Shown one piece after another: positions 3,884 through 22,099 of a stretch of 24,000 nucleotides of DNA; within the stretch, counting starts at the first letter, position 1; each line of letters begins with the position of its first letter. The stretch is taken from assembly GCF_900100885.1 (NCBI RefSeq), contig NZ_LT629692.1, forward strand, positions 1,809,966 through 1,833,965. Reading direction: 5' to 3'. The translations under genes were made by a program, and so were the position numbers. This DNA is from Microbacterium pygmaeum. Lineage in GTDB: Bacteria > Actinomycetota > Actinomycetes > Actinomycetales > Microbacteriaceae. The notes beneath the pieces are model-generated. The model saw nothing but the letters and a program-made list of their open reading frames with translations, did no database searches and was not told the origin of the DNA.

Positions 3884-3955
3884 GCCTCTGTAGCTCAATG
3901 GAAGAGCAGTTCCGTCCTAAGGAAACGGTTGGGGGTTCGAGTCCCTCCAGGGGCA
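3884..3955 (+). tRNA. tRNA-Arg (anticodon CCU), CCA not encoded
   Basis: Hand-folded cloverleaf. The acceptor is GCCTCTG/CAGGGGC (one G-U pair). The D arm is GCTC-AATGGAA-GAGC. The anticodon arm is GTTCC-GTCCTAA-GGAAA (T33, CCT at 34-36, A37, with a 27:43 G-A mismatch). The variable loop is CGGTT, the T arm is GGGGG-TTCGAGT-CCCTC, and the discriminator is A. The overall shape resembles E. coli argW as I remember it. The anticodon assignment is less certain than the tRNA call. Confidence 0.75.
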
Positions 3956-3970
3956 CAGTGCTTTTTTGCC

Positions 3971-4163: not shown

Positions 4164-5303
4164 TTACTGCAGTCGCTGGGGTCGGGCGTACCGAGTCTGA
4201 GGACCCGAAGGCAGCGCCACCAACGGCATCTGCTCATTCAGTCGCGTCGCGACTTCGTCCAGATCGTCCTCGAAGAGGTCGGCGTACGTGTCGAGCGTCA
4301 TCGCGGCCGACGCGTGGCCGAGCATCCGCTGCACGGCCTTCACATTTGCTCCCGAGCTGATCGCGAGCGACGCGGCGGTGTGACGGAGGTCGTGCGGAGT
4401 GAGCCGCGGAATCGATGGGTCGATCTCCTGCGCCCGCCGGACCGCATTCGCGAACCATCCCTTGTCGCCCGAGTTGCGCATGTGATTGAGTCCGTCGCCG
4501 AACAGCAGACCCTCCGGGCCCTTGCCGGCGCACGCTTGCTCGATCATCGGGGCGAGGCGCGCGGGATACGGGACTGAACGGCGTTCCTGCGTCTTGGGTG
4601 TGCCGACGTGGATCTCGTAGGCGATCATGACCGCGTTCTCCTCGATGACGAAGCGCCGGCGCAACCGGTTCACGCTGCGAACCCGCAGCCCTGTCGCCTC
4701 ACCCCATCGCAGACCGCAGTAGGCGAGTGTGAGGACGAGCGTCGGATGCGCGGAGCACGCCGCCAGCGTCGCCACCTGGTCATGTGTGAGGTAGATGCGT
4801 CGCTTGCCCGGTCCGTGCCGCGGAAGGTTGCGCACGTTGCGGGCCGGATTGCTTGCGAGGCGCCGATCGTCGATCGCAACGTCGAGGATGCCGGCCAGAA
4901 TCCCCAGCGCGCGAAGGACCACCGTCCGCGACTTCGTCGTCGCGAGAGCTGACACCCAATCCTGGACTTCAGAGCGCCGGATCGACGAGATCTCACGGTC
5001 TGCCCAGACAGGAGCGACGTGATTGTTCCAGGCTCGCTCGAGTGTCATGTAGTACGAGGGCTTCGACATCGGCGGCTGCTTGGATCGCAGCCAGCTGTCC
5101 GCGAACATGCGAACAGGAACTCGCGACGATGAGGGGTCGATGTACTCGCCCTTCGACTTCGACACCGTGACCATCGACAGGTAGAGCTTCGCTTCGCGCA
5201 TCGTTGTGAAGCCGCGCTTCTCTGCCTCGGTGCGATCCGGCTTGCGATAGCGCACGCGGTAGCGGCGGCCCTTCGCCGTCTCGTACGGGGTGATGTAGCC
5301 CAT
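4164..5303 (-). CDS. int: Tyrosine recombinase (phage/ICE-type integrase)
   Basis: I trimmed the 481-aa track ORF to the ATG at 5303, which is preceded by GGAGG 6 nt upstream. The N-terminus MGYITPYETAKGRRYRVRYRKPDRTE is a typical arm-binding domain. Catalytic residues are visible in LRWGEATGLR (R), HDLRHTAAS (H-x-x-R) and LGHASAAMTLDTYADL (H...Y). The gene sits next to a tRNA 3' end. Confidence 0.92.
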   Translation of the reverse strand: MGYITPYETAKGRRYRVRYRKPDRTEAEKRGFTTMREAKLYLSMVTVSKSKGEYIDPSSSRVPVRMFADSWLRSKQPPMSKPSYYMTLERAWNNHVAPVWADREISSIRRSEVQDWVSALATTKSRTVVLRALGILAGILDVAIDDRRLASNPARNVRNLPRHGPGKRRIYLTHDQVATLAACSAHPTLVLTLAYCGLRWGEATGLRVRSVNRLRRRFVIEENAVMIAYEIHVGTPKTQERRSVPYPARLAPMIEQACAGKGPEGLLFGDGLNHMRNSGDKGWFANAVRRAQEIDPSIPRLTPHDLRHTAASLAISSGANVKAVQRMLGHASAAMTLDTYADLFEDDLDEVATRLNEQMPLVALPSGPQTRYARPQRLQ

Positions 5304-5345
5304 CTCGACCTCCGCTCGCGCCGGCTCGACAGTGGAGTATTGACA

Positions 5346-5360
5346 CAGTGTCGGACACTG
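5346..5360. promoter_or_regulatory. Perfect 15-bp palindrome upstream of the integrase start (candidate operator)
   Basis: CAGTGTC-G-GACACTG at 5346-5360, 43 bp upstream of the int ATG. A TTGACA hexamer abuts it on the + strand at 5340-5345, but I could find no matching -10. Confidence 0.35.
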
Positions 5361-5632
5361 GCCCGGGTCGTCAACGCGGAAGACGACAGATGTGGATAGA
5401 TGACGGAAGACGTCGTCAACTGGCGTTGGGGTGGAGGGATAGCGCCCTCCGACGCAGAGAGTCCGGCGATCGTTCGCGCCTCTCACTCCTTGCAGACTCC
5501 GTGCTGGCGCGCTCCGCTCAGCAGCCGTTCGATGACAAGCATTGCGCCGCGCCCGATCGCCGAGTGGGCCGAACCTCGGTGCGATAGCGCTTTCGCTGAA
5601 GCTCACCATCCGGGCAGCTGCTCATGGATCGG

Positions 5633-5676: not shown

Positions 5677-5997
5677 GTGGTCACCGATCAGACGCGCCAA
5701 GCGATTCGAGCGTTCACGGACGAGCGAGAGTGGGACCAGTTCCACTCCGCGGCGAACCTCGCCAAGAGCATTTCGATCGAGGCTGGCGAACTGCTGGAGT
5801 GCTTCCAGTGGACCGACGACGCCGATCCCGAGCAAGTGGCTGAGGAGTTGGCCGACGTCCTGACATACTGTGTTCTGCTTGCGGACCGCCTCGGAGTGGA
5901 TCTGGACGCCATCGTGCTCGGCAAGCTTCGCGCATCGGCGGCGAAGTATCCCGTGGACAAGGCGCGCGGTAAGAGCGCAAAATATGACGCCCTTTAG
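5677..5997 (+). CDS. MazG-like nucleoside triphosphate pyrophosphohydrolase (small all-alpha NTP-PPase)
   Basis: 106-aa ORF with a GTG start directly after an in-frame TAG at 5665. The sequence REWDQFHSAANLAKSISIEAGELLECFQW...PEQVAEELADVLTYCVLLADRLGVDL shows the paired E-x-x-E / E-x-x-D metal-binding helices typical of the MazG/dCTPase-like family. Confidence 0.8.
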   Translation: MVTDQTRQAIRAFTDEREWDQFHSAANLAKSISIEAGELLECFQWTDDADPEQVAEELADVLTYCVLLADRLGVDLDAIVLGKLRASAAKYPVDKARGKSAKYDAL

Positions 5998-7711
5998 CAT
6001 CGAGAAGCTCGGTTTCGACGTAGCGGCGATCGCCGCACTAGCGCGGGGCGATAAGCGATACTCCAACTGGCCCGTAGTGTACGTGTTGGACGGCCGGGCA
6101 CAGACTTCGGTCTACGTCGGCGAGACCGTTAACACAGTCGCCCGCATGCGCCAGCACCTGGCTTCGCCGTCGAAGTCAGGGCTGAGCACGATCCGCGTCG
6201 TCGTCGATGACACCTTCAATAAATCCGCGTGCCTCGACCTCGAGTCGCACCTCATTCGCTGGCTCGCAGGCGACGGTCGATTCACGGTTCTTAATGGCAA
6301 CGAGGGCATCATCGACGCTGAGTACTACGACCGCGCCCTCTACAGAGAATCGTTCCGCGACATCTTCGAGCAACTGCGCGCGGAGGGTGTCTTCGGGCGC
6401 AGCATCCCCGAGATCGAGAACGGCGACCTGTTCAAGCTGTCGCCGTTCAAGGCGCTGACGCCCGATCAGGCGATCGCTGTCGAGGACATCCTCGAGGGCT
6501 TGTTCGTCGATCTTGCCGCCGGTACGGGGTCGACGGCCGTCATCCAAGGGCAGCCGGGTACAGGCAAGACCATCATCGGGATCTTTCTGCTGAAGCTTCT
6601 GGCGGACATTCGCGACTACGACGACTTGGACGATGTTCAGCCTGACTCGATCTTCTCGGAGCTATTCGTGCCCGAGCACCGAGCGCTGCTCGACGGCTTC
6701 CGCATGGGTCTGGTTGTGCCGCAACAATCGCTGCGCGAGTCGATCCGGCGAGTCTTCAAGAAGACACCAAAGTTGCATCCGGGGATGGTCCTATCGCCCT
6801 GGGACGTCGGGCTCGGCGGTGGAGACTATGACCTCCTCGTCGTTGATGAGACTCACCGGCTGAACCGACGTGCCAATCAGTCCTCCGGGATGCGCAACCT
6901 CGACTACCAGCGCATCAACGAGAAGCTCTTCGGCGCAGATGACTATGCGAAGACTCAGCTCGACTGGATCAAGGCCAAGAGCCGCCACCAGCTGTTGCTC
7001 GTCGACCGTGAGCAGAGTGTCCGCCCCGCCGACCTCCCGGACGCCATCCTCCGCGGAGAGCTGGAGGTCGCCCGTGCAGCGGGGCGTCGCTATCCACTAA
7101 CGACGCAGATGCGCGTCCGCGCCGGCACTGACTATGTCGACTTCATTCGTCGCCTCCTCCGTGGCGAAGCGGAAGAGGGGGCTCGCCCCGACTTCGGCGA
7201 GTACGATCTCCGCTTTTTCGACGACGTCGGCGCCATGCGCCGCGCGATCTTTGCTCAGGATGCGTCCCGCGGTCTCGCCAGACTTGTCGCGGGCTACGCG
7301 TGGGACTGGGTGAGCAAGAAAGATGTCGACGCATCCGACATCGTGCTAGACGATGTCTCGATGCGATGGAACAGCAAGGACACCGATTGGATCAACTCAC
7401 CGGGGTCGCTTCACGAAGTCGGCTCCATCCACACCGTGCAGGGCTACGACCTCAACTACGCGGGCGTGATCATTGGTCCCGACCTGCGCTACGACCCGAC
7501 CTCGGACCAGCTCTTCGTCGACCGTGATTCGTATCGTGACAAAAAGGGCAGCGAGAACAATCCGCGCTTGGGTATCACTTTCACCGACGAGGAACTACTG
7601 CAGTACATCCGCAACATCTATGGGGTGCTACTGACGCGCGGGATGCTCGGGACATTCGTCTACGTCTGCGACCCAGCGCTCCGCGAGTATGTGCGATCTC
7701 GGTTCGCCTGA
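5984..7711 (+). CDS. GIY-YIG nuclease-like domain fused to a DUF2075-type P-loop NTPase (SF1-helicase-like, Schlafen-C-terminal-like)
   Basis: I trimmed the track ORF (5870) to the ATG at 5984, which overlaps the MazG-like stop by 14 nt. The N-terminus VYVLDGRAQTSVYVGETVNTVARMRQH...LESHLIRWL...LNGNEG fits the GIY-(x10)-YIG, Arg, Glu, Asn order. Walker A is GQPGTGKT and Walker B is LLVVDETHRL. C-terminal SF1-like blocks are HTVQGYDLNYAGVIIG and VLLTRGMLGTFVYV. Confidence 0.8.
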   Translation: MTPFSIEKLGFDVAAIAALARGDKRYSNWPVVYVLDGRAQTSVYVGETVNTVARMRQHLASPSKSGLSTIRVVVDDTFNKSACLDLESHLIRWLAGDGRFTVLNGNEGIIDAEYYDRALYRESFRDIFEQLRAEGVFGRSIPEIENGDLFKLSPFKALTPDQAIAVEDILEGLFVDLAAGTGSTAVIQGQPGTGKTIIGIFLLKLLADIRDYDDLDDVQPDSIFSELFVPEHRALLDGFRMGLVVPQQSLRESIRRVFKKTPKLHPGMVLSPWDVGLGGGDYDLLVVDETHRLNRRANQSSGMRNLDYQRINEKLFGADDYAKTQLDWIKAKSRHQLLLVDREQSVRPADLPDAILRGELEVARAAGRRYPLTTQMRVRAGTDYVDFIRRLLRGEAEEGARPDFGEYDLRFFDDVGAMRRAIFAQDASRGLARLVAGYAWDWVSKKDVDASDIVLDDVSMRWNSKDTDWINSPGSLHEVGSIHTVQGYDLNYAGVIIGPDLRYDPTSDQLFVDRDSYRDKKGSENNPRLGITFTDEELLQYIRNIYGVLLTRGMLGTFVYVCDPALREYVRSRFA

Positions 7712-7742: not shown

Positions 7743-9314
7743 TCAGCCGACCACGACGCGTTGCACATCTTCGAGCGTCACCTCGCGTCCGACGCTCAGA
7801 AGCGCGAGGAGCATTTCGGCATCAACCCGTCCGTCCTGCGCATGCTGAATCAATGCAATCCATGCTGTGATGCCGACAGCGGACCCTGGGACGCCCGTTT
7901 CATCAACGATCTTTCGTAGACGGGGATTGATGCTTGCGCCGAAGCTGGAGGAGATAAAGACCCACGCTTTAAGCTTCGGCGACTTCTGAGCGTAGGCGGC
8001 CACATACTCCTTCATCGCTCTCTCGTCGCTTGCAGGGAGGGTGTATCCGTTCCCGTGCGCCTTCGTGTCGACGATGATTCGCCAAGAGTTGTTGTTGTCG
8101 ACTACCACGTCGGGTTCCCTCCCAGCGCCTCCAACGTGCCGGGCATCAAGTTCGAACACGCGCTTGAAGACATCTGTCGTCGCAAGCTCGAAGTCCCGCG
8201 CGCGCTCGCGACTCGAGCGAGCCATCTCCGCGTAGCCGAGAAGGAACTGATCCAGCGTGCGAGATCGGTCCGGCATCACGCGGCCCAGTGCCGCGCTGAC
8301 GGACGCCGGACTAAAGCCGGTGGATGCCGACACGCGCTCCAAGAATTCGGCAGGAGGGACCGCGACAATCATCTCGGTGCGGGCAATGCCAAGGACAACC
8401 GTCTGAACACGTAGGTCGATCGCTTCTTCCCGAGAAAGCGCTCGCGACCCCGACAGATTTCTGGTGTCCTTCGATCTTCCGGGGGGCAAGCCGTAGCGAC
8501 GCTGGAATTTCTCTTCATTCTGCGGGTCAGGGATGAGGGCCGCCCCGCCGTGTTGCTCAATCAATTCCTGAGCGAGCGTCTCGCGTCCAGGAGTGATCCA
8601 GATTTGGTCGTCCTGCCGCTCGACGAGGTTGGTATGCTGCATCCAGTTCATCGCCGTGTTCGCAATGTCGGCGAGTGCTTCGCGCAGCCGGTCAGGTCTT
8701 CCTCGATTGGAGCAGAAGCGCGTTGAGAAGTCCGGCTCAAGACTCGAATCGCCGTCTTCGCGATATTGCAGGATGGCCTCGACGACCTTGTCCCGACCTG
8801 CAACGGTGTGCCGGTCACCGAGGGTGATCACTCGCAGAGCAATCTCTTCCTGGGCTAGGTAGCCAACGCGATCGTCAAGGAGTAGTCGAAGTAGCAGAAC
8901 CATCGGCCTTAGCTGGAACCGTCGGTCGACATCGACATTTCGGCCGACGGAGTAGGGCGACGGGAACTGATACTTCAGGACCTGATTTCCGAGAATCGGC
9001 GCCGGCGGCTCTCCGTCGGCGAGCGCTTCACCAGCCAGCGTCAAATACATCCGCTCGTCCGCTTCGCGCTCGAATGCAAGTCCCAAGCTGCGCAGAAGGC
9101 TCGCGTGCGTGCGGCCGCCCGACCCTCCAGCGTCTCGCCTGTCACCCTGGCGCTTGATGGACTCACGTTCAAGGACCTCTTCGAATGCGATGTGCAACTC
9201 TCTTGATCCCGACCATGGCCGACCGTAAGCCACCTCTCGAAGCGCAGCGACTGACTGCGGCACGCGGTAAAGCTTGCGTTGTGGTCGCGTGAAGAACCAA
9301 TACGGCAGAGTCAC
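7743..9314 (-). CDS. Type IIS-like restriction endonuclease with a FokI-type cleavage domain
   Basis: 523-aa ORF with a GTG start. The C-terminal block FELATTDVFKRVFELDARHVGGAGREPDVVVDNNNSWRIIVDTKAHGNGYTLPASDERAMKEYV aligns residue by residue with the FokI catalytic domain as I recall it (..GGSRKPDGAIY..GVIVDTKAYSGGYNLPIGQADEMQRYV). This includes the D...D-x-K catalytic residues. The N-terminal ~350 aa (LPYWFFTRPQRKL...) is presumably the recognition module. The gene lies 93 bp downstream of an m5C methyltransferase on the same strand. Confidence 0.85.
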   Translation of the reverse strand: MTLPYWFFTRPQRKLYRVPQSVAALREVAYGRPWSGSRELHIAFEEVLERESIKRQGDRRDAGGSGGRTHASLLRSLGLAFEREADERMYLTLAGEALADGEPPAPILGNQVLKYQFPSPYSVGRNVDVDRRFQLRPMVLLLRLLLDDRVGYLAQEEIALRVITLGDRHTVAGRDKVVEAILQYREDGDSSLEPDFSTRFCSNRGRPDRLREALADIANTAMNWMQHTNLVERQDDQIWITPGRETLAQELIEQHGGAALIPDPQNEEKFQRRYGLPPGRSKDTRNLSGSRALSREEAIDLRVQTVVLGIARTEMIVAVPPAEFLERVSASTGFSPASVSAALGRVMPDRSRTLDQFLLGYAEMARSSRERARDFELATTDVFKRVFELDARHVGGAGREPDVVVDNNNSWRIIVDTKAHGNGYTLPASDERAMKEYVAAYAQKSPKLKAWVFISSSFGASINPRLRKIVDETGVPGSAVGITAWIALIQHAQDGRVDAEMLLALLSVGREVTLEDVQRVVVG

Positions 9315-9407: not shown

Positions 9408-10565
9408 CTAGCTCGCCTCCGCAACCATCTCTCGGAGGTCGGCGACGCGTCGGGGAGGCACTCGGTGATGAAGGTTCGGCTCGAGGCCGACGTAATCGAT
9501 GCCGGCGAATGATTTTAGAACTGCCTCGAAGACGATCCGAGCCCCTTCCACCGGCACCGCCATACCGATCTGCTTCCGGACGCTCTCCTTGCCTCCCTTG
9601 AACTCGAAACGATCCGGGAAGGTCTGGATGCGGGCCCGCTCACGGTTGGTCAGGGCGCGGTCCTCGGACCAGTGGTAGACGTGGGTCCCACCACCGCCGG
9701 AGCCGGTGATCGTGTAACACGGCTTATCTGCTTCCAGTCGCTTGTAAATCTGGCTGATCCGCGCGCCCGCAACGTTGAGTCGAAGGTCTGCAGGGAGATC
9801 CGCGGTGAACGCGTTTTGGCCCGGTTTGATGTGCTGCAGGCGGCGCACGACGTCCTCACTCTGCTTGGTGAGCTCTTGGTTGGCCGCCCAACCCGGGATC
9901 TCGCTCAGGGCAAGCCGAACGGAGTTGTCACGGTCAGCAAACATCGCTGGCGATGGCACCCTGAACTCCACGTCCAGGTCATCTCGGATTCCCACGATGA
10001 GGATCCGGTGCCTGCGCTGAGGAATTCCGTACTCTTCAAACTTGTAGAGGTGAGGATATAGGCGGTAGCCGGTCCAGGGAGCTGGACGGCCCTCGCTGTC
10101 AGTTTCGCCTCCCGCGTGCTGGAGCCTATCGAGGATCATCTCGAATGCGGTGCCATCGTTGGAGTTCCGAAGTCCTCCCACGTTTTCGGCTACGAACCAC
10201 TTTGGCGAGTAGGTGTCAATGACGCGAGCGCCGTACTCGTAGAGGGGTCCGAACTCCCCAGCGATCCCCTTACGCTCGCCGACGTTTGAGAAGTCGTTGC
10301 AGGGGAATCCGAAAGCGAGGCCATCGATCGGCGACAGCTGCCCGGCGATGTCGAGCTTCCTGACATCCTCATGAATCACCCGAGCGCCGGGGAAGTTGTG
10401 CTTATAGGTATCGCACGTGTCGCGGTCGTAGTCGGTGGCCCATGCATGCGCGATGCGGTACCCCTCCACGGAACCGGCGGCCTGTCGTGCGCCCTCGGCG
10501 ATGCCGCCGGGCCCACTGAACAGTTCGCCCAGTCTGAATACTTCAGTGCGATCGCTGACTGACAC
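9408..10565 (-). CDS. DNA (cytosine-5)-methyltransferase
   Basis: 385-aa ORF with a GTG start preceded by GAGAGG. The m5C MTase motifs appear in order: I FSGPGG, IV GFPCNDFS, VI AENVGG, VIII QRRHRILIVG, IX NRERARIQTFPD, X GMAVPV. Confidence 0.93.
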   Translation of the reverse strand: MSVSDRTEVFRLGELFSGPGGIAEGARQAAGSVEGYRIAHAWATDYDRDTCDTYKHNFPGARVIHEDVRKLDIAGQLSPIDGLAFGFPCNDFSNVGERKGIAGEFGPLYEYGARVIDTYSPKWFVAENVGGLRNSNDGTAFEMILDRLQHAGGETDSEGRPAPWTGYRLYPHLYKFEEYGIPQRRHRILIVGIRDDLDVEFRVPSPAMFADRDNSVRLALSEIPGWAANQELTKQSEDVVRRLQHIKPGQNAFTADLPADLRLNVAGARISQIYKRLEADKPCYTITGSGGGGTHVYHWSEDRALTNRERARIQTFPDRFEFKGGKESVRKQIGMAVPVEGARIVFEAVLKSFAGIDYVGLEPNLHHRVPPRRVADLREMVAEAS

Positions 10566-10693: not shown

Positions 10694-11155
10694 ATGAGCT
10701 CAGCGCAACCCGCTTCATGGGCCAGTAGCGAGACGGCACGCCGGACCATGCTTGCCAATCGCTCGAAGAACACACAACCCGAGTTGGCCGTCCGGAAAAT
10801 CCTTCATGCCGGCGGTCTTCGGTACCGCGTGAATATGCGCCCGATACCGCTTCTGAGGCGCACCGCCGACGTCGTGTTCACCCGAGCACGAGTCGCTGTC
10901 TTCATCGATGGATGCTTCTGGCACAGCTGCCCTGAGCACTCCTCCCGGCCGAAGTCGAACAGCGACTACTGGGGGCCCAAGCTTCGTGGCAACGTGGAGC
11001 GAGACCGACAGACAGATCGCGCGCTCGAGTCAGCGGGGTGGCTTGTGTTGCGCTTCTGGGAGCACGAATCCGAGGTCGAGGTCGCCGAGGCGATCGCGCT
11101 GGCTGTGCGGGCCCAACACTCCTCGTCGTTGGATGCCTCGGGTGTCAAAGATTGA
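10694..11155 (+). CDS. vsr: Very short patch repair endonuclease (T/G mismatch-specific)
   Basis: 153-aa ORF. The sequence NRSKNTQPELAVRKILHAGGLRYRVN...PDVVF...VAVFIDGCFWHSCPEH...NSDYWGPKLRGNVERDRQTDRALESAGWLVLRFWEHE is the canonical Vsr motif set. The gene is divergent from the m5C MTase. Confidence 0.92.
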   Translation: MSSAQPASWASSETARRTMLANRSKNTQPELAVRKILHAGGLRYRVNMRPIPLLRRTADVVFTRARVAVFIDGCFWHSCPEHSSRPKSNSDYWGPKLRGNVERDRQTDRALESAGWLVLRFWEHESEVEVAEAIALAVRAQHSSSLDASGVKD

Positions 11156-11903
11156 GATTTTCGCGGAAGCTTTCCTCGACAATCTGAAAGAGCTCTGCCT
11201 CCGGAAGCGTGCCCAGCGCGCGGCGACCGGCGAGGTAGTCGAGATCCTCGAGGAACGAACGCACCCCCACTCGGTCGTAGGGAGTTTCCTGGTTCACCAG
11301 GTAGTTGGTGAGCACGCTGAGGAGCGCTCGGGCGAGAGCCGGGACCGTCGCGAGGCTGGGTCGGCCGAGCACCTGAACTGACAGATCGCTGTTCGAGAAG
11401 AACGCCTGCAGGGCGGGATTCAGGTCGCTCGGATCGGCAAATCGGCGAACATACGAACCGCTCCACCAGAGCCGGGCAATGGCGTGATCCCGCTCTCGCC
11501 GCCTGTCCGTGCTCGCAAACACGTGATTGATGACGTGATTGCCGAGCGCGTCATCGCTAGCCGGCCAACGATCCCGCGTGTAGTTGCGAAAGTAGCCGAG
11601 TGCCAGCGTCACCCAGAGGCGCTCGTCGACCGCGTCAGCCGGGGTGAGGTTGGGCAGAACGCGAAGAATAAGTCGAGCGTTCGCCGCGTCCAAGTCACCT
11701 TGCCGGGTGTCTCCGTCGGACAGCTGGAGCCCGCAGTTACCGTCAACCTCGTATTCCGACTCAATGAATCGCAGGTCGAGGGTCTTGACTAGTGCGTCCA
11801 AATCGTTGTTCCAAACTTCAGCCGCCTGGGACCCGGCCGCCATCACTCGCAGCGTGTCAACGGAATCGGCGGTGAGAATGCGCAACTGTTGCATCTCAGA
11901 CAT
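11145..11903 (-). CDS. Hypothetical protein, fourth and last gene of the GHKL-ATPase operon
   Basis: 252-aa ORF. Its ATG overlaps the upstream stop by 8 nt (ATGTCTGA). Codon bias is good and the protein is mostly helical and Trp/Arg-rich (ERLWVTLALGYFRNYTRDRW, IARLWWSGSYVRRF). I recognise no catalytic motif. Confidence 0.75.
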   Translation of the reverse strand: MSEMQQLRILTADSVDTLRVMAAGSQAAEVWNNDLDALVKTLDLRFIESEYEVDGNCGLQLSDGDTRQGDLDAANARLILRVLPNLTPADAVDERLWVTLALGYFRNYTRDRWPASDDALGNHVINHVFASTDRRRERDHAIARLWWSGSYVRRFADPSDLNPALQAFFSNSDLSVQVLGRPSLATVPALARALLSVLTNYLVNQETPYDRVGVRSFLEDLDYLAGRRALGTLPEAELFQIVEESFRENLNL

Positions 11904-12738
11904 CTGCGACCTCGACCTTCTTGATTCCTTTCGCGCTCACGAGAAGCTGTGCGGAGATCTCCTGATACTCAGGGTCGTCCGGATCGAGCGCGCGCCCAAG
12001 GTCTTCCAGGCGACTCATCAAAGTACGGCCCCACGGCAACTCCGTGTTCTCGCCGTCCTCCTCACGTGCGAGGTAGTTCAGCGCGCCGGCGATGCAGTCC
12101 TTATAGACGCTCATGAACAGGTACGGCCGCGTGGACCGATCGGCGCGCATGTGCCCGATGGCATCGCGGAGACTCTCGCCGGCGATGATGATGATGCGCG
12201 GGCCGTCGTACTGGAAGCGATAGATGTCCGTGTCCGACTCTTCGGTCGAGTACTTGATCGTCACCAGGTCGCGGTCGAGTGTTCGGGAGAACTCCAGGTC
12301 GACGGTGACCGATTCGCCGACGCCGAGGATGTCGCCTTCACGAACACCGAACACAGATGTCCCGAACTCTTCATTGATTCCATCGGGCCGATATGTCTGG
12401 TTCGAGGAGCTGGCAATGATGAGCGGCGTGAGCGTGGTGCTGCCGTACAGCTGGCCATCGTCGAACACGAGCTGACCCTTCCACCCGTCCAGGTCGACAT
12501 ACTCTCTGAAGAGAGTCGATCGGCACTGAACGTCCATCACAATGCGCGCATTGCCGTCGAGGAAGTATTCGTCCATCCACGCCACCGACTGAGTGATGTC
12601 GTATGTGACGACGAGCTGCTGCGATGTGTCTCCGCCCATCTCAGCTTCAATTGCGGCGTGAAATTTGGCATCGCTTCCGAAGTCGTCGCTGAACGAGGAG
12701 AGGACTGGGTACGGGTATGCCTTGGCTCGATAGCTCAC
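11896..12738 (-). CDS. Hypothetical protein, third gene of the GHKL-ATPase operon
   Basis: 280-aa ORF with a GTG start in a GTGA overlap with the ATPase stop. The N-terminus is SYRAKAYPYPVLSSFSDDF. It has an acidic, beta-rich middle and a helical C-terminus. I recognise no motif. Confidence 0.75.
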   Translation of the reverse strand: MSYRAKAYPYPVLSSFSDDFGSDAKFHAAIEAEMGGDTSQQLVVTYDITQSVAWMDEYFLDGNARIVMDVQCRSTLFREYVDLDGWKGQLVFDDGQLYGSTTLTPLIIASSSNQTYRPDGINEEFGTSVFGVREGDILGVGESVTVDLEFSRTLDRDLVTIKYSTEESDTDIYRFQYDGPRIIIIAGESLRDAIGHMRADRSTRPYLFMSVYKDCIAGALNYLAREEDGENTELPWGRTLMSRLEDLGRALDPDDPEYQEISAQLLVSAKGIKKVEVADV

Positions 12739-14660
12739 GGTTCGAGTCGCCCTTCAATCGCATAGTCGAGGTCTGCTGGGTGGAAGACGAGGCGGAGATG
12801 CTTGCGCGCGGTGGCGCTTAGCTCTGTGAATTCGAGTGAAGTGCGCCACGCTGAGCCCGCGGCCACTTCCTCCTCGGTCCGGAACTCCAGACGCTCAGTC
12901 TCCGAGTCGCCCGAGCGGAGCAGGACGAGAGTCTTTCGCGTCCCGTCCACCGGCGTGAAGGCGACATCGGCTACACCTGATCCTGGTGCCGTCCGAACGA
13001 CGCGAAGGTTTCGAACGGGGAGGCCGGTCCGAAGCGCGCTCTTCGCGGAACCCGAGCCATCGCCGGGGAAGGTTCCACCCTTCGACTTGTGCTTTCCTGG
13101 GCCGCCGTTGGATCCGCGGCCGGACGTGTCCGCATCGCCGGTGAGTTCGGTCTGCCTGTTCTCTCGATGTGAGCGAGCCTTCTTGAAGGCGATCCGCAGG
13201 GTTCGGTTCGGCTCGCCCTTCTCGTTGTCAACGCCAGCGCCTAGATCGCCCCGGAACCAATCGTCCAAGTCGTCGACGGACACCTCTTCTTCAATCTGGA
13301 TAGAAGCATGCTCTCGCAGGAGGCTCCGCACGCTCGATTGGAACTTGTAGTAGGCGGCTTCCGCGGACTTTCTCTCCGTCATGTCGCTGATTCGATCAAA
13401 CGCGAACTCCGTGTGCTCTGGGTTCTCGAGCTTTCGCAGAAGCTCCGAGCCCTGGTCTCCTGACACGCAGACAAACAGGTCGAACGGCTTCAGACCCGGA
13501 AAGCGCTGCAGCTTCTCTGCTGCTCGTGTGATCAGCATCCCGTTGCCGCGGGCGACGCCCACGTGACGCCCGACAACTCCATCAAGGCGGAGATACCAGT
13601 TGATCGTTCCGAAGTCCTCCAGTTGGAGTGTTCCGGAAAGATCCTTCTTGCGCACGGTTCGCGCGGATTCGAGTCGCTCGACGACCTTGTCTGTCGGCTT
13701 GAGTATGTTGATCAAGTCCGTTTCGACCACATCGTCGAATGCCTGGGCAACGCTGTCGGCGTCGATGCGTTCGTGCTCGCCCAGATGGACCACCAACTTA
13801 TTCGTAAGCACGGCGAAGTAGAAGTTTGCGACGACTGCGAGCTTGACTTCCGCCCACAGCAACTCTTCTTCCTCTACCCCATACGGCTCTGGAATGTACA
13901 CCGACGTGCCAACGCTCAACGCATCCCGGTCGAGCTCTGGTCGCGCCTGAATCGCCCATCGTGGCACCTCGCCGTCTGTGAGGGGGAGGCACTTCGTCCG
14001 AATGCCGAAGTACCCGGTGGCGACGCACCACTCGGGGGCACCGGTCACTTCGGTAAGGGGGACAGATTGAAGGATGCTCTTCCCTTGGAACCTCGTCTCG
14101 AGCGAACCCTCGTGCTCGATGCGGGAAAGGTAGAAAAGGGTGCGGAGCTCTGACATGGCGAATGGCGCCCGCGACCCATGCCCGAAGGAACCTAGGGCGG
14201 AGCTACTCTCCTTGAAGGTCATGCCAGCCCCCTTCACCAGGGCAAGCCATGGCCCTGATTGCGGATTCTCCGGCGGATCAAAGGTGGGCCCGGTCAGCCC
14301 TCTCGTGTTGTAGTCGTGGACCCCTAGGAACGTGACGTGGCCGTCAGCGACCTGATCGATCGCTCGCTGGTAGAAGCTCTTGCCGGCCTGAGTGTGTTCC
14401 AGCTTGTGCGCTGCCTTGAAGTAGCGAGCGAGCTCATCGAATCCCGTGTCGTCGAGGTCGGACGTCGTGTCGAGCGTGAATCGCACAATGACTGGGTCAC
14501 TGGTCTTGTCCTGCGCGTCGAGCGAGTTCTGGATCATCTCGCGTACGAGTGCTTGAAGGCGCTCGCTCTTGAACATGTCGATTGCCGACACGTTGAATCC
14601 CTCTCGAGTCCCGTCGTTTAGGAACGGAAACTTCCAACCCACATCACTTGTCATGCTCAC
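12735..14660 (-). CDS. GHKL (Bergerat-fold, HATPase_c / MORC-, sacsin- or Hsp90-like) ATPase with a long uncharacterised C-terminal region
   Basis: 641-aa ORF. The N-box is LVREMIQNSLDA, the G1 box is GVHDYNTRGLTG, and the G2 box is LGSFGHGSRAPF, all within the first ~170 aa and in the canonical order. Next come ~330 aa I cannot assign and a low-complexity linker (TGDADTSGRGSNGGPGKHKSKGGTFPGDGSGSAKS). The protein ends in a ~100-aa beta-rich C-terminal domain. Confidence 0.85.
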   Translation of the reverse strand: MSMTSDVGWKFPFLNDGTREGFNVSAIDMFKSERLQALVREMIQNSLDAQDKTSDPVIVRFTLDTTSDLDDTGFDELARYFKAAHKLEHTQAGKSFYQRAIDQVADGHVTFLGVHDYNTRGLTGPTFDPPENPQSGPWLALVKGAGMTFKESSSALGSFGHGSRAPFAMSELRTLFYLSRIEHEGSLETRFQGKSILQSVPLTEVTGAPEWCVATGYFGIRTKCLPLTDGEVPRWAIQARPELDRDALSVGTSVYIPEPYGVEEEELLWAEVKLAVVANFYFAVLTNKLVVHLGEHERIDADSVAQAFDDVVETDLINILKPTDKVVERLESARTVRKKDLSGTLQLEDFGTINWYLRLDGVVGRHVGVARGNGMLITRAAEKLQRFPGLKPFDLFVCVSGDQGSELLRKLENPEHTEFAFDRISDMTERKSAEAAYYKFQSSVRSLLREHASIQIEEEVSVDDLDDWFRGDLGAGVDNEKGEPNRTLRIAFKKARSHRENRQTELTGDADTSGRGSNGGPGKHKSKGGTFPGDGSGSAKSALRTGLPVRNLRVVRTAPGSGVADVAFTPVDGTRKTLVLLRSGDSETERLEFRTEEEVAAGSAWRTSLEFTELSATARKHLRLVFHPADLDYAIEGRLEP

Positions 14661-14681
14661 CCATTCGTGGTCTGTCTTCTT

Positions 14682-14924
14682 CTAGTCCGTCAATCGAAAG
14701 GACCGGTCGCGTCCCGATGAAGCATCGGCGAACCTTGCCTTCACCGCTCGCACTTCGTTCTCCAACGCCCTGATGATTTTGCTGACCTCGGCGTCGGTGA
14801 ACTCGTAATTTGAGCGGTTTGACAGATTGCCAATCAGGCGGATCGCACTCAGTGCCTTATCCGTTCGCGCCTCAGCGAGGGAGATGAATCGCTCGCGACG
14901 GTCTCTCACGAGAATTCCAAACAT
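14682..14924 (-). CDS. Small helical hypothetical protein, first gene of the GHKL-ATPase operon (possible regulator or adaptor)
   Basis: 80 aa from the ATG at 14924: MFGILVRDRRERFISLAEARTDKALSAIRLIGNLSNRSNYEFTDAEVSKIIRALENEVRAVKARF... The track ORF starts at an upstream GTG at 14942, so the start is ambiguous. The gene ends 21 nt before the ATPase start on the same strand. Confidence 0.55.
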   Translation of the reverse strand: MFGILVRDRRERFISLAEARTDKALSAIRLIGNLSNRSNYEFTDAEVSKIIRALENEVRAVKARFADASSGRDRSFRLTD

Positions 14925-14990
14925 TCGGCCCACATGACACACATGGTACGCATTGCTTGCCTACATTCGCAACCTGTATGCAGATGCGTG

Positions 14991-15007: not shown

Positions 15008-15089
15008 ACCTCCTCCTTTGGCATCGATCGCCACGAGAGCCAATCGCTCCGGAATGTGGGGATTCCGTTGGCCCATACCGCCGTCGAAA

Positions 15090-15698
15090 ATGGTTACGCT
15101 CGGCGGCATGGAAGCTTTCGAGCAATTTGTAGCTCTCGCGATGGAGCAGGAGGGTCTCGTCGTCTCCGGAGCGTTGAAGTTTCCGGTCAAGGTGCGGACT
15201 ACCAAAGCTGCCTACGAGGAGTGGCAGACCCACGGTTTCGAAGTGGACCTAGTCGGTGCGCGCTCAGACCGCCTCGTGCTCGCGACGGTGAAGTCTTTCT
15301 TCGGCTCGCGAGGTGTCGTCGCCGAGCACGTCCGCGGTGACAGCCAAAACAAGGTGTGGAACGCGAAGTACGCAGTGATAAACAACCCCCGGATCCGAGA
15401 TGGTGTCGTAGCAGGGGCAGCGGCCCGATTCGGATACTCGATCGAGCAGGTGCAACTACGCCTCTATGTAGGCAGATTCGCTGGGGTGGCTCACGAGTCA
15501 GAAGTCCGGGCGTGGTGCGCGAGCCAGACTGTGGGCGCCGGTCCGATTTCGGTCGTCGGCGCCGCTGACGTCGTTGATGTTGTGCGCGCCGTCGCCAGTT
15601 CCAAGACATATCGAGACAGCGCCGTCCTCGCATCGCTCAAGGTTCTCGACGCCGCCGGAGCGCTCCGGCCAGTCGGTGGTCCAGCCGCCCACGCGTAG
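15090..15698 (+). CDS. Stand-alone PD-(D/E)XK (Mrr-cat/restriction-endonuclease-like) nuclease-fold protein
   Basis: I trimmed the track ORF (15018, TTG) to the ATG at 15090, and an ATG at 15108 is equally possible. The sequence MEAFEQFVALAMEQEGLVVSG...HGFEVDLVGARSDRLVLATVKSFF has the helix-E...(E/D)-hD-hh...h-x-K layout of the restriction endonuclease-like fold. The C-terminal ~110 aa are unassigned. Confidence 0.65.
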   Translation: MVTLGGMEAFEQFVALAMEQEGLVVSGALKFPVKVRTTKAAYEEWQTHGFEVDLVGARSDRLVLATVKSFFGSRGVVAEHVRGDSQNKVWNAKYAVINNPRIRDGVVAGAAARFGYSIEQVQLRLYVGRFAGVAHESEVRAWCASQTVGAGPISVVGAADVVDVVRAVASSKTYRDSAVLASLKVLDAAGALRPVGGPAAHA

Positions 15699-17116: not shown

Positions 17117-17854
17117 CTAGAAGGCTGAACCAAAGCCCGGTAGCACATCCTCAAGCTCCCGCCTTATCGCGTATGGCGCGTGATTACTCCTCAGTCTTCG
17201 CAGTTCGTCGGCACGCATACGAGGGTCAACTTCGATGAACTGGTTGAGGGTCACGAAATACGGCGCGACTAGCCGCGCCGTGAATCCGCGGGTGTAGGTG
17301 GCGCCCATCACTCCTGCTTCCGACCGTGCCGCGCGGACGACCGCCGTGACTTGCGAATGCCCCACCCGCGTGCCACTGACGAGGTTTCGAAGTGCCCCCA
17401 AGTCGATCGGAGGCTGGTCGGATTCACGAAGCTCCGTGGCACTAGAGCACACAAGTGCGAAGTGATGCAGACGAGATACGTTTCCGTTGCTCGTCACCAG
17501 CATTTCGTCCGGAACTCGGTAGGCACGTCCGTCGAATGTTCGCCCGGCTTGCCACAGGCGTAAGCGTGGCGGCTCGCGGTCTTGTAGACGCGCAGGCGAC
17601 AGCATTGACGAGAATCGCACCAGCGGTTCCGCGCCCTGCGCTAACAACGCTGGCAGGGAAGGACGCACACTGTTTCCGATCCCCCACAGGAACACACCGT
17701 TGCTGGAGTTCAGTTCCTCCGATTTTCTTTGCAGGATGTCATCGATGCGCTCTCCCGACTCCGTGCCGTATCGCGTCCAGCAAAATGCCGAGCCCAGCTC
17801 AACACATGCGGTAGCGTCGCCTTGAGTGCGGTCCGGGGCGTCCGTCAATGGCAT
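17117..17854 (-). CDS. Hypothetical protein, paralog A of an unknown family (see 19589-20137)
   Basis: 245-aa ORF with an ATG start. It shares ordered blocks with the 182-aa protein at 19589-20137: GERIDDILQRKSEE, VFLWGIGNS, HFALVCSS, LVAPYFVTL. It carries an extra ~45-aa C-terminal extension. Confidence 0.75.
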   Translation of the reverse strand: MPLTDAPDRTQGDATACVELGSAFCWTRYGTESGERIDDILQRKSEELNSSNGVFLWGIGNSVRPSLPALLAQGAEPLVRFSSMLSPARLQDREPPRLRLWQAGRTFDGRAYRVPDEMLVTSNGNVSRLHHFALVCSSATELRESDQPPIDLGALRNLVSGTRVGHSQVTAVVRAARSEAGVMGATYTRGFTARLVAPYFVTLNQFIEVDPRMRADELRRLRSNHAPYAIRRELEDVLPGFGSAF

Positions 17855-17896
17855 GCTGCAACCGTACCGGGCGAATCAGTAGGAACGGGGGCCACC

Positions 17897-18928
17897 ATGA
17901 CGCCTTCGTTCACATCGCCCGAGCAACTTCGTCACGAACTTCGGCAAGCTGGCTTATCGAATGACATGATCACCGCGGCTTGGCCGCAGTGGTGGTCCGA
18001 CGATGCCGTCGGATCGACCTCCGCGGAGGCCGAGCTGAGGTTCTCGCTCGCGCGCAAGCTAGGGCTATCTGCGACGTCGCTGCTCGACGACGAACCCGCT
18101 TTCGTGATGCGGGGGCGAGCGAGTTTCAAGCGAGCAACGCTCGGCCGTCAGATCGACGGACTAATGCTCACAACGGTCGGCCACTCGCTTGGGATGCTGA
18201 TCGCGGCCGCAACGACAACCCCTTACCGGCCCTTGACAGGCGCCGCTGCGGTACGCGAGGCCGTCCTCAGCTCTAGTGACTTTGTGGGGCTACAGGACCT
18301 AACGCTTCTTTGCTGGGCTTGCGGGATCCCGGTGGTGTCACAGTCCGTGTTTCCCCTTTCAGCGAAGCGAATGGACGCAATGACCGTGGTTGCCGACGGC
18401 CGCCCCGTCATATTGCTTGCCCGGCGCACCGAGTATCCTGCCTTCCTCTCATTCATGGTTGCGCATGAGTTGGGCCACATCGCGTTGGGCCACGTCACCG
18501 AGGACGAGCCCATAGCGGACTTCTCGACCGAGCACATCGACCTCAGCGACTATGACGCCGCCTATGATCAGGACGACCAGGACGAGGCGGATGCAAACGC
18601 CTTCGCCTTGGAACTGCTTACCGGTGACCCGGCATTCACCGTGAATGCTGATCGCGCTGACTTCAATGCTGCGCAGGTGGCGGCCGCTGCTCGCGAGACC
18701 GGCGAGCGACTACGCGTAGATCCAGGCTTCGTCGCACTCGCCCTGGGGCACAGCACGAAGCGCTGGCCGCAGGTCTATTCGGCGATGCGTGAGTTTGGCC
18801 ATCATGTAGACGACTTGGGTCGGCAACTAAATCAACTCGCCATAAACGAACTTGACGCTGCACAGTTGTCGGATGACTCCTGGGATTACGTGACGCGTGC
18901 CCTCGGATATTCGAGCGACGATGCTTGA
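17897..18928 (+). CDS. ImmA/IrrE-family (COG2856, DUF955) zinc metallopeptidase with an N-terminal helical, possibly Xre-like region
   Basis: I trimmed the track ORF (17729) to the ATG at 17897, which is preceded by AGGAACGGGGG. It has the HEXXH motif in FMVAHELGHIALGHV, followed by an acidic stretch and DEADANAFALELL, as is typical for this family. Confidence 0.8.
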   Translation: MTPSFTSPEQLRHELRQAGLSNDMITAAWPQWWSDDAVGSTSAEAELRFSLARKLGLSATSLLDDEPAFVMRGRASFKRATLGRQIDGLMLTTVGHSLGMLIAAATTTPYRPLTGAAAVREAVLSSSDFVGLQDLTLLCWACGIPVVSQSVFPLSAKRMDAMTVVADGRPVILLARRTEYPAFLSFMVAHELGHIALGHVTEDEPIADFSTEHIDLSDYDAAYDQDDQDEADANAFALELLTGDPAFTVNADRADFNAAQVAAAARETGERLRVDPGFVALALGHSTKRWPQVYSAMREFGHHVDDLGRQLNQLAINELDAAQLSDDSWDYVTRALGYSSDDA

Positions 18929-19613: not shown

Positions 19614-20137
19614 GGCGCCATTAGTGGCGCCGCTACTGAGATCTTGACCGTTGCGGCGTCCTCCGTGGGCGCGTCAACAACATCGAGACAGGCTTTGTCC
19701 AGCCGGCCGCGAATATAGTCCTTCCCGACTTTGCCTCGCGAGTCGCCTACTCCGACTCGAGTCGCACTCAGGTCTAGCAGGGTGTCAACGTCATCCAGGC
19801 TCGAGAGAACGAGCGCGTATTTCGAACCGAGGACATTTACCTCTGCGGGAATCTCCCGCCACGTTTCGCGGTCCGTCGAGTACTCGCGAGAACGCACTTG
19901 TGCCGCATTGTGATTCGAGTTGATTTCCTGCATGACGAGCGTTATCGGCCCTTCAACTCTTTCCGCAAATTCGCGCACGCGGGTCGGAAAGCAAGAGTTC
20001 CCTCCATATCCCCACATCGCGAATCCAGCTTCCTGCACCTCCCGACGCTTTCTCTCCAAAATGTCTTCGAGCGTCTCGCCGGCATGGACCCCGACTTTCA
20101 TGTAAAGAATGTGGTCTCCCGGTGCGATTTCCATCAC
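19589..20137 (-). CDS. Hypothetical protein, paralog B of the unknown family and third gene of the kinase/transferase operon
   Basis: 182-aa ORF. Its start (GTG 20137 or ATG 20134) overlaps the upstream TGA. Blocks GETLEDILERKRRE, FAMWGYGGNS, KYALVLSS and LMAPYAVFL match the 245-aa protein at 17117-17854. Confidence 0.8.
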   Translation of the reverse strand: MMEIAPGDHILYMKVGVHAGETLEDILERKRREVQEAGFAMWGYGGNSCFPTRVREFAERVEGPITLVMQEINSNHNAAQVRSREYSTDRETWREIPAEVNVLGSKYALVLSSLDDVDTLLDLSATRVGVGDSRGKVGKDYIRGRLDKACLDVVDAPTEDAATVKISVAAPLMAPYAVFLRD

Positions 20138-20961
20138 TCGTCCTCTCCCAGCATGTCAAATTCGTAGCCTCGTTGAACTCCGGCCCCATCGGGGCCGCCC
20201 TTATCGCGGACATATCTCACCCTGGGAATCTGATCGCGACCGTAGAAGTGCTCGAGGTCTACTCCGCGTCGGGGGACACTCTTGACGGGTCGACCGTTTT
20301 GAGGCAAAGAGCTGAGCACGAGGTTGCAGGACTTGAGATCGGGTGCATCGTCGAGGTGATAGGAGTGCAGTTGAGGCGACATCCGACTTACGAAAAAGCC
20401 TGCTTCCAAAGCATGTCTCTGAGTAGCGTGTAAGACCTGCTTGGGCCAATCCAAGTCTTCGTCATCGGCGATGACGATCATCCCATCTCCCTCGTATGCA
20501 AGAAGCTCGAATCCTCGTTGCGTGAAGAGTTGCACGCTCTCTCCCTTGTTGCTGGCTCCCCAGGGCGGGTTTGTATAAAAGCAGTCGAAGCGTTCAATTT
20601 CGTCCGGCACCCCGTCTAGCACGTTGTAGAGCACGGCGTCGAGATTGGTTACACCCTCGGCGGCGGCGAACCGCTTAACGGCGTTGACAATGCGCTCGTC
20701 GAAATCGAAGACTGTAATTTGTGTGGGGGACGTCTCGAGGATGTTTCTGCTCGCCAAATAGGCCACGCAAACGCTGATGGCATCTCCATCTCCGACGAAC
20801 GCGAGCCGCTTCCCGTGTGCCCACCGAGAAACGAACTCGCTCTGAAGAATCATGTCGCCAGTCTTCATATAGATCTGATCAAACTCGCGCAGCGGCTGAG
20901 GACGGTTTTGAACTACGTCTGAAACCGCGTTGATCGCTGCCCGCAAGTCGATGTCAGTCAC
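20134..20961 (-). CDS. BpsA/DUF43-like SAM-dependent transferase (aminopropyl- or methyl-transferase fold with an NPPW motif)
   Basis: 275-aa ORF with a GTG start in a GTGA overlap with the kinase stop. Motif I is RLAFVGDGDAIS, followed by VFDFDERIV and then FDCFYTNPPWG. The protein ends with FFVSRMSPQLHSYH. The order and wording match the branched-polyamine synthase (BpsA)/DUF43 family as I recall it (lGDDDlts...DiDeRl...f.TDPP.T...fn.Y). Confidence 0.75.
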   Translation of the reverse strand: MTDIDLRAAINAVSDVVQNRPQPLREFDQIYMKTGDMILQSEFVSRWAHGKRLAFVGDGDAISVCVAYLASRNILETSPTQITVFDFDERIVNAVKRFAAAEGVTNLDAVLYNVLDGVPDEIERFDCFYTNPPWGASNKGESVQLFTQRGFELLAYEGDGMIVIADDEDLDWPKQVLHATQRHALEAGFFVSRMSPQLHSYHLDDAPDLKSCNLVLSSLPQNGRPVKSVPRRGVDLEHFYGRDQIPRVRYVRDKGGPDGAGVQRGYEFDMLGEDE

Positions 20962-21530: not shown

Positions 21531-22099
21531 TGTCCCCCTAGGAGATCAATCGCAGCCCGACCAATTCGTGCGCGAGTTAGTCAGAACGTACACCGACTAG
21601 TTTTCGATACGTGGGAGCGCCGCGGCCGCCCGGTCATGTACCGGGTGTTGGTTGGTGGGCCGGCCCTGGAGTACGCCGATCTGCAGGGTTCGCGTGCGAA
21701 GGCTGCGCGAGGACACACAATCGAGCATCGGAAGTTCTAGATGGACATCGCATGTGACATTCGCCGCCGCGCTGGTGCTCGGTCCCAAAGCCGGTCCATC
21801 AGCACCGTGCGGTTCACCCACAGACCCGATCGCAGCGAAGCGTCGCGGGCGGCGGAGGGCGCGCCCAGGAAAGGCCCACGTTGCGAGTAGCCAACGCGAA
21901 GCGTCGTCCAGCAGAGCAGCGGTGAGCGGACAGTGCTCCGAAACGGAGGACAGCAGAACAGCGATTCCATACAACAATGCACGCAGGCGCCAATCGGTGA
22001 CAGCCTGATCCGCGCTTCATCCAGAAGCATCCCGCTACACGTTCCCGCAAACCGCAAAAAAGCCTGGCCAGACGCTAAAAGTGGTCATACTCTGGCGCT

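Follow-up and report, generated by a model that had tools for sequence, protein, structure and literature searches.

ATPases that combine a GHKL with an S5 domain and are encoded in operons together with DCM and Vsr genes were described as MORC and paraMORC components of restriction-modification (R-M) systems in passages of the 2008 paper by Iyer, Abhiman and Aravind (PMC2292703), where the hallmark given for paraMORC2 is an ExxxH motif with which the S5 domain ends. A computational compilation of 145 single- and multigene "phage defence candidates" (PDC) was derived from genes embedded in loci of bacteriophage exclusion (BREX), of the defense island system associated with restriction-modification (DISARM), and of type I R-M (Payne et al., bioRxiv 10.1101/2024.01.29.577857). 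Here, we analyzed a stretch of 24,000 nt from Microbacterium pygmaeum (contig NZ_LT629692.1, positions 1,809,966 to 1,833,965; hereafter the window), which carries four adjacent minus-strand genes labeled S, A, B, and C, with A encoding a GHKL ATPase. The genes A, B, and C correspond to one of these candidates, PDC-M33. On balance, we consider it somewhat probable that the PDC-M33 locus represents the executing ("attack") half of a modification-dependent, R-M-like discrimination between self and non-self, with a logic closest to that of BREX, DISARM, and paraMORC operons.

The four genes are arranged in the window as follows:

14682-14942, minus strand: S, 86 aa when read from GTG as the longest open reading frame (ORF); likely start at 14909 or 14924, giving 75-80 aa
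12735-14660, minus strand: A, 641 aa; likely start at the ATG at 14654, giving 639 aa; corresponds to PDC-M33A
11896-12738, minus strand: B, 280 aa, acidic; corresponds to PDC-M33B
11145-11903, minus strand: C, 252 aa, DUF6339; corresponds to PDC-M33C

The close packing of these genes was confirmed by the ORF listing and by the junction sequences. A and B are joined by a GTGA overlap (junction sequence ccGTGAgc), and B and C share the overlap ATGTCTGA (junction sequence gcagATGTCTGAgatg). Overlapping and adjacent genes support the translationally coupled, GHKL-based operon that had been proposed in an initial annotation of this DNA. The gene sizes given there were retained for B (280 aa) and C (252 aa), while later starts are likely for S (75-80 aa) and A (639 aa). 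In public gene calls for contigs with an identical protein, A begins at the ATG at 14654 and S comprises 75-80 aa; a later start of S is also indicated because conservation in the alignment of its homologs begins at "RERF". A scan for promoters and terminators returned nothing exceeding shuffled expectation.

Searches with PADLOC matched A to the PDC-M33A model (1.4e-74), B to PDC-M33B (3.1e-26), and C to PDC-M33C (5.9e-29), and the three genes are consecutive and overlapping. PDC-M33 is held in PADLOC-DB v2 as cassette CAS_00129 with three families, so that the initial statement that this gene combination matches no named system could not be upheld. Profile searches placed these three genes in the catalogued candidate; S gave no significant PADLOC match. 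The cassette is widespread and catalogued, and its description as an unnamed new gene combination was overstated, because A-B-C belongs to PDC-M33 and to a broader class of GHKL ATPases whose role in R-M contexts was predicted long ago. A literature search retrieved no paper mentioning PDC-M33 or DUF6339.

To gain an overview of the cassette in other genomes, the best 80 of at least 401 loci with a relative of A were compared, the underlying scan having taken one genome per species. These 80 loci comprise Actinomycetota, Pseudomonadota, Chloroflexota, Bacteroidota, Bacillota, Saccharibacteria, Planctomycetota, Nitrospirota, and Acidobacteriota, as well as an archaeon (Cenarchaeum). The presence of A, B, C, and S was called by iterated hidden Markov model searches over all ORFs; neighboring genes were counted within 3 kb of A-B-C, and flanking ORFs were clustered and then compared with Pfam. 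The order A-B-C was kept in about 76 of the 80 loci, the exceptions being truncated or broken. Since this order recurs in loci of different species, it reflects more than chance, and the proposed test of whether B and C are conserved neighbors of A across many phyla was answered positively.

The small gene S behaved differently. Its homologs were found in 13 of the 80 loci, every time located just upstream of A or of a Dcm-A pair. With a presence in just 13 loci, S is an optional accessory gene outside the universal core, and the conserved unit consists of the three genes A-B-C rather than the four that had been assumed. S is a two-helix protein with the conserved motif RF..LAE.R...LGNLSN..NYEY, which includes an LGNLSN..NYEY loop. 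No significant match was obtained for S in Pfam, PADLOC, or the PDB, and matches to PHROGs were faint and uninformative.

The dominant families flanking the cassette were C5 DNA methylases (PF00145), directly upstream of A, and Vsr (PF03852), directly downstream of C. Within 3 kb of the cassette, 54 of the 80 loci encode a C5 methyltransferase, which in most cases adjoins A and shares its orientation. Vsr was detected in 26 loci, mostly directly after C, and a methylase was present in all 26. With M denoting the C5 methyltransferase and V denoting Vsr, the commonest architectures were M-A-B-C-V (14 loci) and M-A-B-C (10 loci), with gaps of at most 60 nt. Further architectures included S-M-A-B-C, M~S-A-B-C, A-B-C-M, A-B-C-V-M, and S-A-B-C~V...M, the last of which was seen in Oribacterium and is similar to the arrangement in the window. 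Among the 26 loci without C5 methylase, 17 contained a PAPS_reduct (PF01507)/SspD-like gene, which follows C as an independent gene in 8 loci, extends C at its C-terminus as a fusion in 7, and immediately precedes A in 2. Two tandem or fused copies of C, considered for some of the loci, were rejected: the extra gene or domain is PAPS_reduct/SspD-like. The remaining loci without C5 methylase lie in type I HsdS/HsdM units, by other defense genes, or, in a few cases, by housekeeping genes. In total, a candidate DNA-modifying enzyme (C5 methyltransferase or PAPS-reductase-like) was located beside the cassette in 71 of the 80 loci.

Homologs of A were also detected on mobile elements. They are carried by 21 plasmids, e.g. 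in Deinococcus with the order Dcm-Vsr...S-A-B-C and on megaplasmids of L. salivarius with the order HsdS-HsdM-small ORF-A-B-DUF6339; a megablast search of the operon against plasmids gave no match. Two of 50,697 phage records contained an A homolog. In one of them, a temperate Clostridium innocuum phage (L092, PV036421.1, 1907-5986), S-A-B-C adjoins the integrase, C comprises 354 aa, and a DNA methyltransferase follows after about 1 kb, an arrangement suggestive of a cassette copy residing in a prophage.

Some loci showed further peculiarities of the cassette. Two loci (L005 and L072) possess two A-B-C cassettes each, which are convergent in L005 and divergent in L072, where one is a far relative (A', 8e-47). 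Insertions of about 1.2-1.6 kb split A in L017 and B in L026 and L027. Apparent frameshifts split genes in several metagenome-assembled genomes of marine or sponge-associated origin (listed loci L015, L016, L025, L030, L031, L050, and L056). Such splits could result from insertion sequences, from pseudogenization of a costly system, or from assembly errors. A recurrent family of 320-427 aa was noted beside the methylase or the cassette in six loci (L001:3742-5025, L004:2489-3733, L006:6742-8004, L045:6702-7664, L048:12904-14049, and L073:11413-12564). In L001, its member is positioned between Dcm and an AspBHI/Mrr-type restriction endonuclease (REase); the L006 member, which was the one scanned, had no Pfam match.

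In the window itself, the cassette is followed by three genes related to DNA modification and cleavage:

10694-11155, plus strand: Vsr very-short-patch repair endonuclease (Pfam Vsr, 7.6e-18), converging on and overlapping the 3′ end of C
9408-10565, minus strand: Dcm-type C5 cytosine DNA methyltransferase (Pfam DNA_methylase, 1.7e-65; PADLOC MTase_II, 2.8e-107)
7743-9314, minus strand: type II REase, AlwI-like, with a FokI cleavage domain (Pfam FokI_cleav_dom, 4.3e-16; PADLOC REase_II, 5.2e-22)

These genes had been regarded as an R-M-Vsr module that neighbors the operon, a view in need of revision in light of the comparative data, which link Dcm and Vsr to A-B-C. By sequence match, the window corresponds to Logan contig L082 in reverse orientation. 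Two loci of actinobacterial relatives allow a direct comparison. In L085, whose A is 85% identical to that of the window, S-A-B-C is followed by Dcm (78%) on the opposite strand; no Vsr was called, and a FokI-like REase with 36% identity is present (L085:12500-14083). In L086, with an A of 66% identity, Vsr (65%) and Dcm (74.5%) are divergent from A-B-C, and both S and the FokI-like REase are absent. No homolog of the REase was found in the 80 loci. Because Dcm and Vsr persist through three arrangements and the REase does not, the Dcm and Vsr of the window probably belong functionally with A-B-C. Dcm is proposed as the self-marking partner of A-B-C and may also serve the adjacent REase. The REase itself is probably located outside the conserved system and might exploit this methylation in addition to, or independently of, A-B-C. 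Between the window and L085, the REase shares 36% identity versus 78% for Dcm, which suggests that the REase was replaced or is diverging fast beside a stable methylase. The FokI-like REase, the SLFN-type (Schlafen) helicase, and a 226-aa ORF were also considered as parts of the system and rejected, as the 80 loci contain no homolog of any of them.

Family searches gave little information on A, with no Pfam family at E<=1 and no NCBIfam match. Likewise, neither HATPase_c_3 (at E<=10) nor any other GHKL Pfam family was detected among 36 homologs of A. The alignment of these 36 sequences (33-84% identity to the window protein) displayed all GHKL motifs I-IV (ExxxNxxD; DxGxG-like; GxxGxG; GT). 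These comprise (i) the N-box EMIQNSLDA, with invariant E41, N45, and D48; (ii) the HDYNTRGLTG box, with invariant D116, T119, G121, and G124, which forms an atypical G1 box (D-x-N-T-x-G-L-x-G); (iii) the GSFGHG box, with invariant G157, S158, F159, G160, and G162; and (iv) motif IV, with invariant G251 and a nearly invariant T252 (>=90%). The first three are the Bergerat-fold boxes read from the sequence in the initial annotation, and their conservation bears out that reading. The residues E412, P414, and H416 (ENPEH) are invariant as well and are positioned right after the helix 402-411, at the end of the second domain.

The AlphaFold2 model of A (mean pLDDT, the predicted local distance difference test score, of 79.7) has a confident core extending to about residue 455. 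It is divided into a GHKL domain (residues ~1-260), a transducer-like domain (~265-455), a disordered Gly/Ser/Lys linker (470-543), and a small beta C-terminal domain (545-641). The low-complexity linker and the beta-rich C-terminal domain noted previously were thus recovered in the model. A Foldseek search of the PDB returned two-domain GHKL+transducer ATPase regions for all of the top 38 matches (E between 2.8e-8 and 5e-4); the best was TRAP1 (2.8e-8), and the others included GRP94 N+M, GyrB/ParE 43K, Topo II, and MORC2/3. Since about 480 columns of A align to GHKL+transducer structures, i.e. GyrB-43K, Hsp90 N+M, and MORC2/3, A is predicted to hold the transducer domain that had not been recognized in the initial annotation. 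By its conserved motifs and its predicted fold, A is a GHKL ATPase, and in the model it has a second, transducer-type domain and an overall layout as in MutL.

The two partner proteins were described initially as unrecognizable. This holds insofar as neither carries a catalytic signature, but C belongs to DUF6339, both are catalogued as PDC-M33B and PDC-M33C, and B is modeled with two immunoglobulin (Ig)-like sandwiches. B had neither a Pfam match nor a match among PDB sequences. Its model (pLDDT 80.7) displays two Ig/fibronectin type III (FnIII)-like beta-sandwich domains (~26-187) and a C-terminal helical region (188-268), for which Foldseek returned generic Ig/FnIII-like modules alone (E ~1e-3; PDB and viral models). 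Few positions of B are conserved (P11, L13, D19, R78, W236, and Q264). We read B as a non-enzymatic adaptor. A role of B as nuclease or as reader of modifications was rejected, given the generic Ig/FnIII-like matches and the lack of a conserved catalytic set.

C matched Pfam DUF6339 (PF19866) with 1e-38, and its family comprises 735 cluster representatives at E<=1e-3. Its conserved positions are rich in Arg and Trp (D72, W97, Y108, R112, and L145-W146-W147; motifs DERLW and SRLWW). No match of C to PDB sequences was obtained, and B and C appeared unrelated to each other when compared with hhalign. Across S, A, B, and C, DUF6339 for C was the sole family assigned by Pfam, NCBIfam, and PHROGs, and comparison of the profiles of the four proteins with PDB sequences gave low-complexity or designed-repeat noise alone.

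Methylation of cytosines by Dcm and repair of T:G mismatches by Vsr are well established, and the domains of both enzymes were detected in the window. In the mechanism we propose for the attack-half reading, the linked Dcm would methylate host DNA and thereby set the self mark, and Vsr would repair the T:G mismatches arising from deamination of 5-methylcytosine (5mC). A could dimerize constitutively via its C-terminal domain and, upon ATP binding, via its GHKL domains, forming an ATP-gated DNA clamp. B, with its tandem Ig-like sandwiches and helices, would act as scaffold or adaptor. C may connect the clamp with DNA, with the modification enzyme, or with both; in other lineages, C occurs naturally fused to the alternative modification enzyme, which suggests such a link by a Rosetta-stone argument. 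Unmodified incoming DNA would be clamped and then, more speculatively, be blocked or compacted as in BREX or MORC, or be passed to a nuclease; here, the invariant E412-x-x-x-H416 site within A might be considered, as might a Vsr-type nuclease or an enzyme of the host. S would serve as an optional small accessory or regulatory subunit. Such a function would match the role predicted for MORC/paraMORC ATPases in the respective passages of the 2008 paper (PMC2292703). That the operon is a candidate defense system, as initially proposed, is plausible from its context, i.e. a mobile defense-rich island, its membership in PDC-M33, and the linkage with modification genes.

Several observations weigh against this assignment. 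PDC-M33 is a purely computational candidate. In 9 of the 80 loci, no C5 methyltransferase or PAPS-reductase-like gene is adjacent to the cassette; among these are loci from truncated contigs and loci with methyltransferases of other kinds. M. aquimaris has nearby just an 85-aa methylase fragment. The Dcm of the window shares 59% identity with its counterpart in a Clostridia locus, where A is just 28% identical; therefore, methylase and cassette are not strictly co-inherited. In addition, the window Dcm has a conventional candidate partner, namely the FokI-like REase. Finally, family and PDB-sequence searches of A, B, and C, and the fold search of B, revealed neither a nuclease nor any other effector domain.

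A bolder form of the same idea is that A-B-C and a modification enzyme constitute a distinct, nuclease-free type of epigenetic immunity. A GHKL clamp, guided by DUF6339 and the Ig-like adaptor, would sense unmarked DNA and trap or silence it topologically, with marks being either 5mC or PAPS-reductase-dependent. Such immunity would correspond, in prokaryotes, to the eukaryotic MORC silencing that is coupled to cytosine methylation, and might be its antecedent. We put this forward tentatively and regard it as rather doubtful.

Three other explanations were weighed. According to the first, which we judge unlikely, A-B-C (with or without S) is a self-contained, modification-independent defense or abortive-infection module: A would sense a phage cue, B, C, or an unseen activity would arrest the cell, and methylases would co-cluster through defense islands alone. 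Bare A-B-C or S-A-B-C in about nine loci and the temperate-phage copy without an abutting methylase are consistent with such a module, as are the decoupled identities of Dcm and A between phyla and the fact that no DNA-reading domain was detected for B and C by PDB-sequence searches and for B by the fold search. It leaves unexplained, however, why Dcm and A abut stop to start in the commonest architectures, why Vsr directly follows C, and why Dcm is swapped for a PAPS-reductase-like enzyme, which is fused to C in 7 loci.

A second explanation assigns the A-B-C of the window to the adjacent type II/IIS pair, as a paraMORC-type DNA-looping motor for the REase. With a methyltransferase and a REase at one locus, Dcm and the REase do form a putative type II R-M pair, both genes sharing a strand, with a gap of 93 nt between Dcm and the REase downstream of it. 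Furthermore, the block from S through the REase (S-A-B-C-Vsr-Dcm-REase) recurs, together with the SLFN-type helicase gene, on two contigs whose flanks differ, L085 likewise encodes a FokI-like REase, and looping between recognition and cleavage sites was proposed by Iyer et al. in passages of their paper (PMC2292703). Yet none of the 80 loci yielded a homolog of the REase, L086 lacks it while retaining Dcm, Vsr, and A-B-C, and its counterpart in L085 shares just 36% identity as compared with 78-85% for Dcm and A, which makes an accessory function of this kind very unlikely. Equally improbable is a third possibility, in which A-B-C supports very-short-patch repair in the manner of MutL, aiding Vsr at Dcm-derived T:G mismatches and serving genome maintenance instead of immunity: the MutL-like architecture of A, the at least 14 loci in which dcm and vsr enclose the cassette, and the MutL-Vsr interaction (stimulation of Vsr by E. 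coli MutL) cited in a passage of PMC2292703 would fit, but Vsr occurs in just 26 of the 80 loci, both Dcm and Vsr are missing from the PAPS-reductase class, and the family is distributed sporadically and transferred horizontally.

The wider surroundings of the cassette in the window comprise the following features:

3884-3956, plus strand: tRNA-Arg(CCT), next to the integrase
4164-5609, minus strand: tyrosine integrase, marking one end of the island
5870-7711, plus strand: 613-aa protein with a GIY-YIG nuclease domain and a Schlafen-group-3 helicase domain; weak PADLOC matches to PDC-S14 and PDC-S41
17729-18928, plus strand: 399-aa protein with an IrrE/M78 peptidase domain; PADLOC capP, 2.9e-11; RmrA-like
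20134-20961, minus strand: BpsA_C/mad2-like protein, 1.8e-11
~21900-24000, plus strand: TrwC-type relaxase, running off the far end of the window; also seen in L082

The integrase, the tRNA-Arg gene, and the TrwC-type relaxase agree with the earlier description of a defense-rich mobile island bounded by integrase and relaxase. The GC content of the island is 0.57-0.63, as compared with 0.67-0.71 for its flanks, and the stretch from 4 to 24 kb looks like an integrative mobilizable or conjugative element. A direct repeat of the 3′ end of tRNA-Arg was not found inside the window. The 399-aa IrrE/M78 protein and the BpsA_C/mad2-like protein are defense-regulator-like genes of the island. The ORF at 15018-15698 (plus strand) had been labeled a stand-alone nuclease; it matched neither Pfam nor PADLOC, so that the label is no more than putative. 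In two actinobacterial relatives, L081 and L086, the 613-aa GIY-YIG/Schlafen protein accompanies the cassette, with a MazG-like gene beside it; the 80 loci contained no homolog of the 613-aa protein.

The cassette is represented in at least 401 species-level genomes from bacteria and at least one archaeon, and copies also reside on plasmids, in a prophage, and on integrative elements. Its near-obligate pairing with interchangeable enzymes (C5 methylase, PAPS-reductase-like, and type I HsdM) leads to a testable hypothesis of self/non-self discrimination with a GHKL clamp. New in the present analysis are (i) the transducer domain and MutL-like layout of A; (ii) the Ig-like architecture of B; (iii) the accessory status of S; and (iv) the near-obligate pairing with interchangeable modification enzymes, by which the border of the system in the window is redrawn to take in Dcm and Vsr. 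For annotation, this implies that Dcm and Vsr genes beside PDC-M33 genes are not automatically orphans or a separate type II R-M system. If the attack-half reading is true, the cassette would constitute a third architecture beside BREX and DISARM, i.e. modification-linked defense without a canonical restriction nuclease, and would offer an experimental handle on the link between MORC-type ATPases and cytosine methylation from bacteria to eukaryotes.

Compared with described systems, the locus is closest in composition to PDC-M33, with which it shares the three proteins in identical order; the PADLOC models of PDC-M33 cover A, B, and C, and as far as these models go, S, the methylase, Vsr, and the PAPS-reductase-like partner are not included. 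With MutL, A has in common a GHKL+transducer N-terminal module, a long disordered linker, a small C-terminal domain, and the proximity to Vsr. It differs from MutL in lacking a sequence-level match, in its small beta C-terminal domain without MutL endonuclease motifs, and in being encoded by a mobile, sporadically distributed gene rather than a housekeeping gene.

The likeness to paraMORC and MORC systems, as these are characterized in passages of PMC2292703, comprises the GHKL+S5/transducer module, the operon links with DCM and Vsr, and a sporadic, horizontally transferred distribution. The invariant E412...H416 at the end of the transducer domain of A resembles paraMORC2, a comparison made with the published description only; the ExxxH of A is thus a lead for paraMORC2 membership. 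On the other hand, A matches neither Pfam HATPase_c_3 nor MORC, no conserved SF-II helicase or RE-fold nuclease partner of the kind given in those passages was found in the 80 loci, and partners such as B and C are not described in them.

BREX and DISARM differ from the cassette in their core ATPase, which is of the P-loop type and not GHKL. Moreover, no homologs of PglZ, BrxC, BrxL, DrmA, DrmB, and DrmC were detected among S, A, B, and C, for which PADLOC identified PDC-M33 alone. In BREX, modification modules are exchangeable, as seen for PglX versus BrxP. The cassette likewise combines a conserved ATPase core with alternative modification enzymes, here a C5 methyltransferase or a PAPS-reductase-like enzyme, and has no obvious nuclease; the PDC-M33 candidate was itself found embedded in systems of the BREX and DISARM type (bioRxiv 10.1101/2024.01.29.577857).

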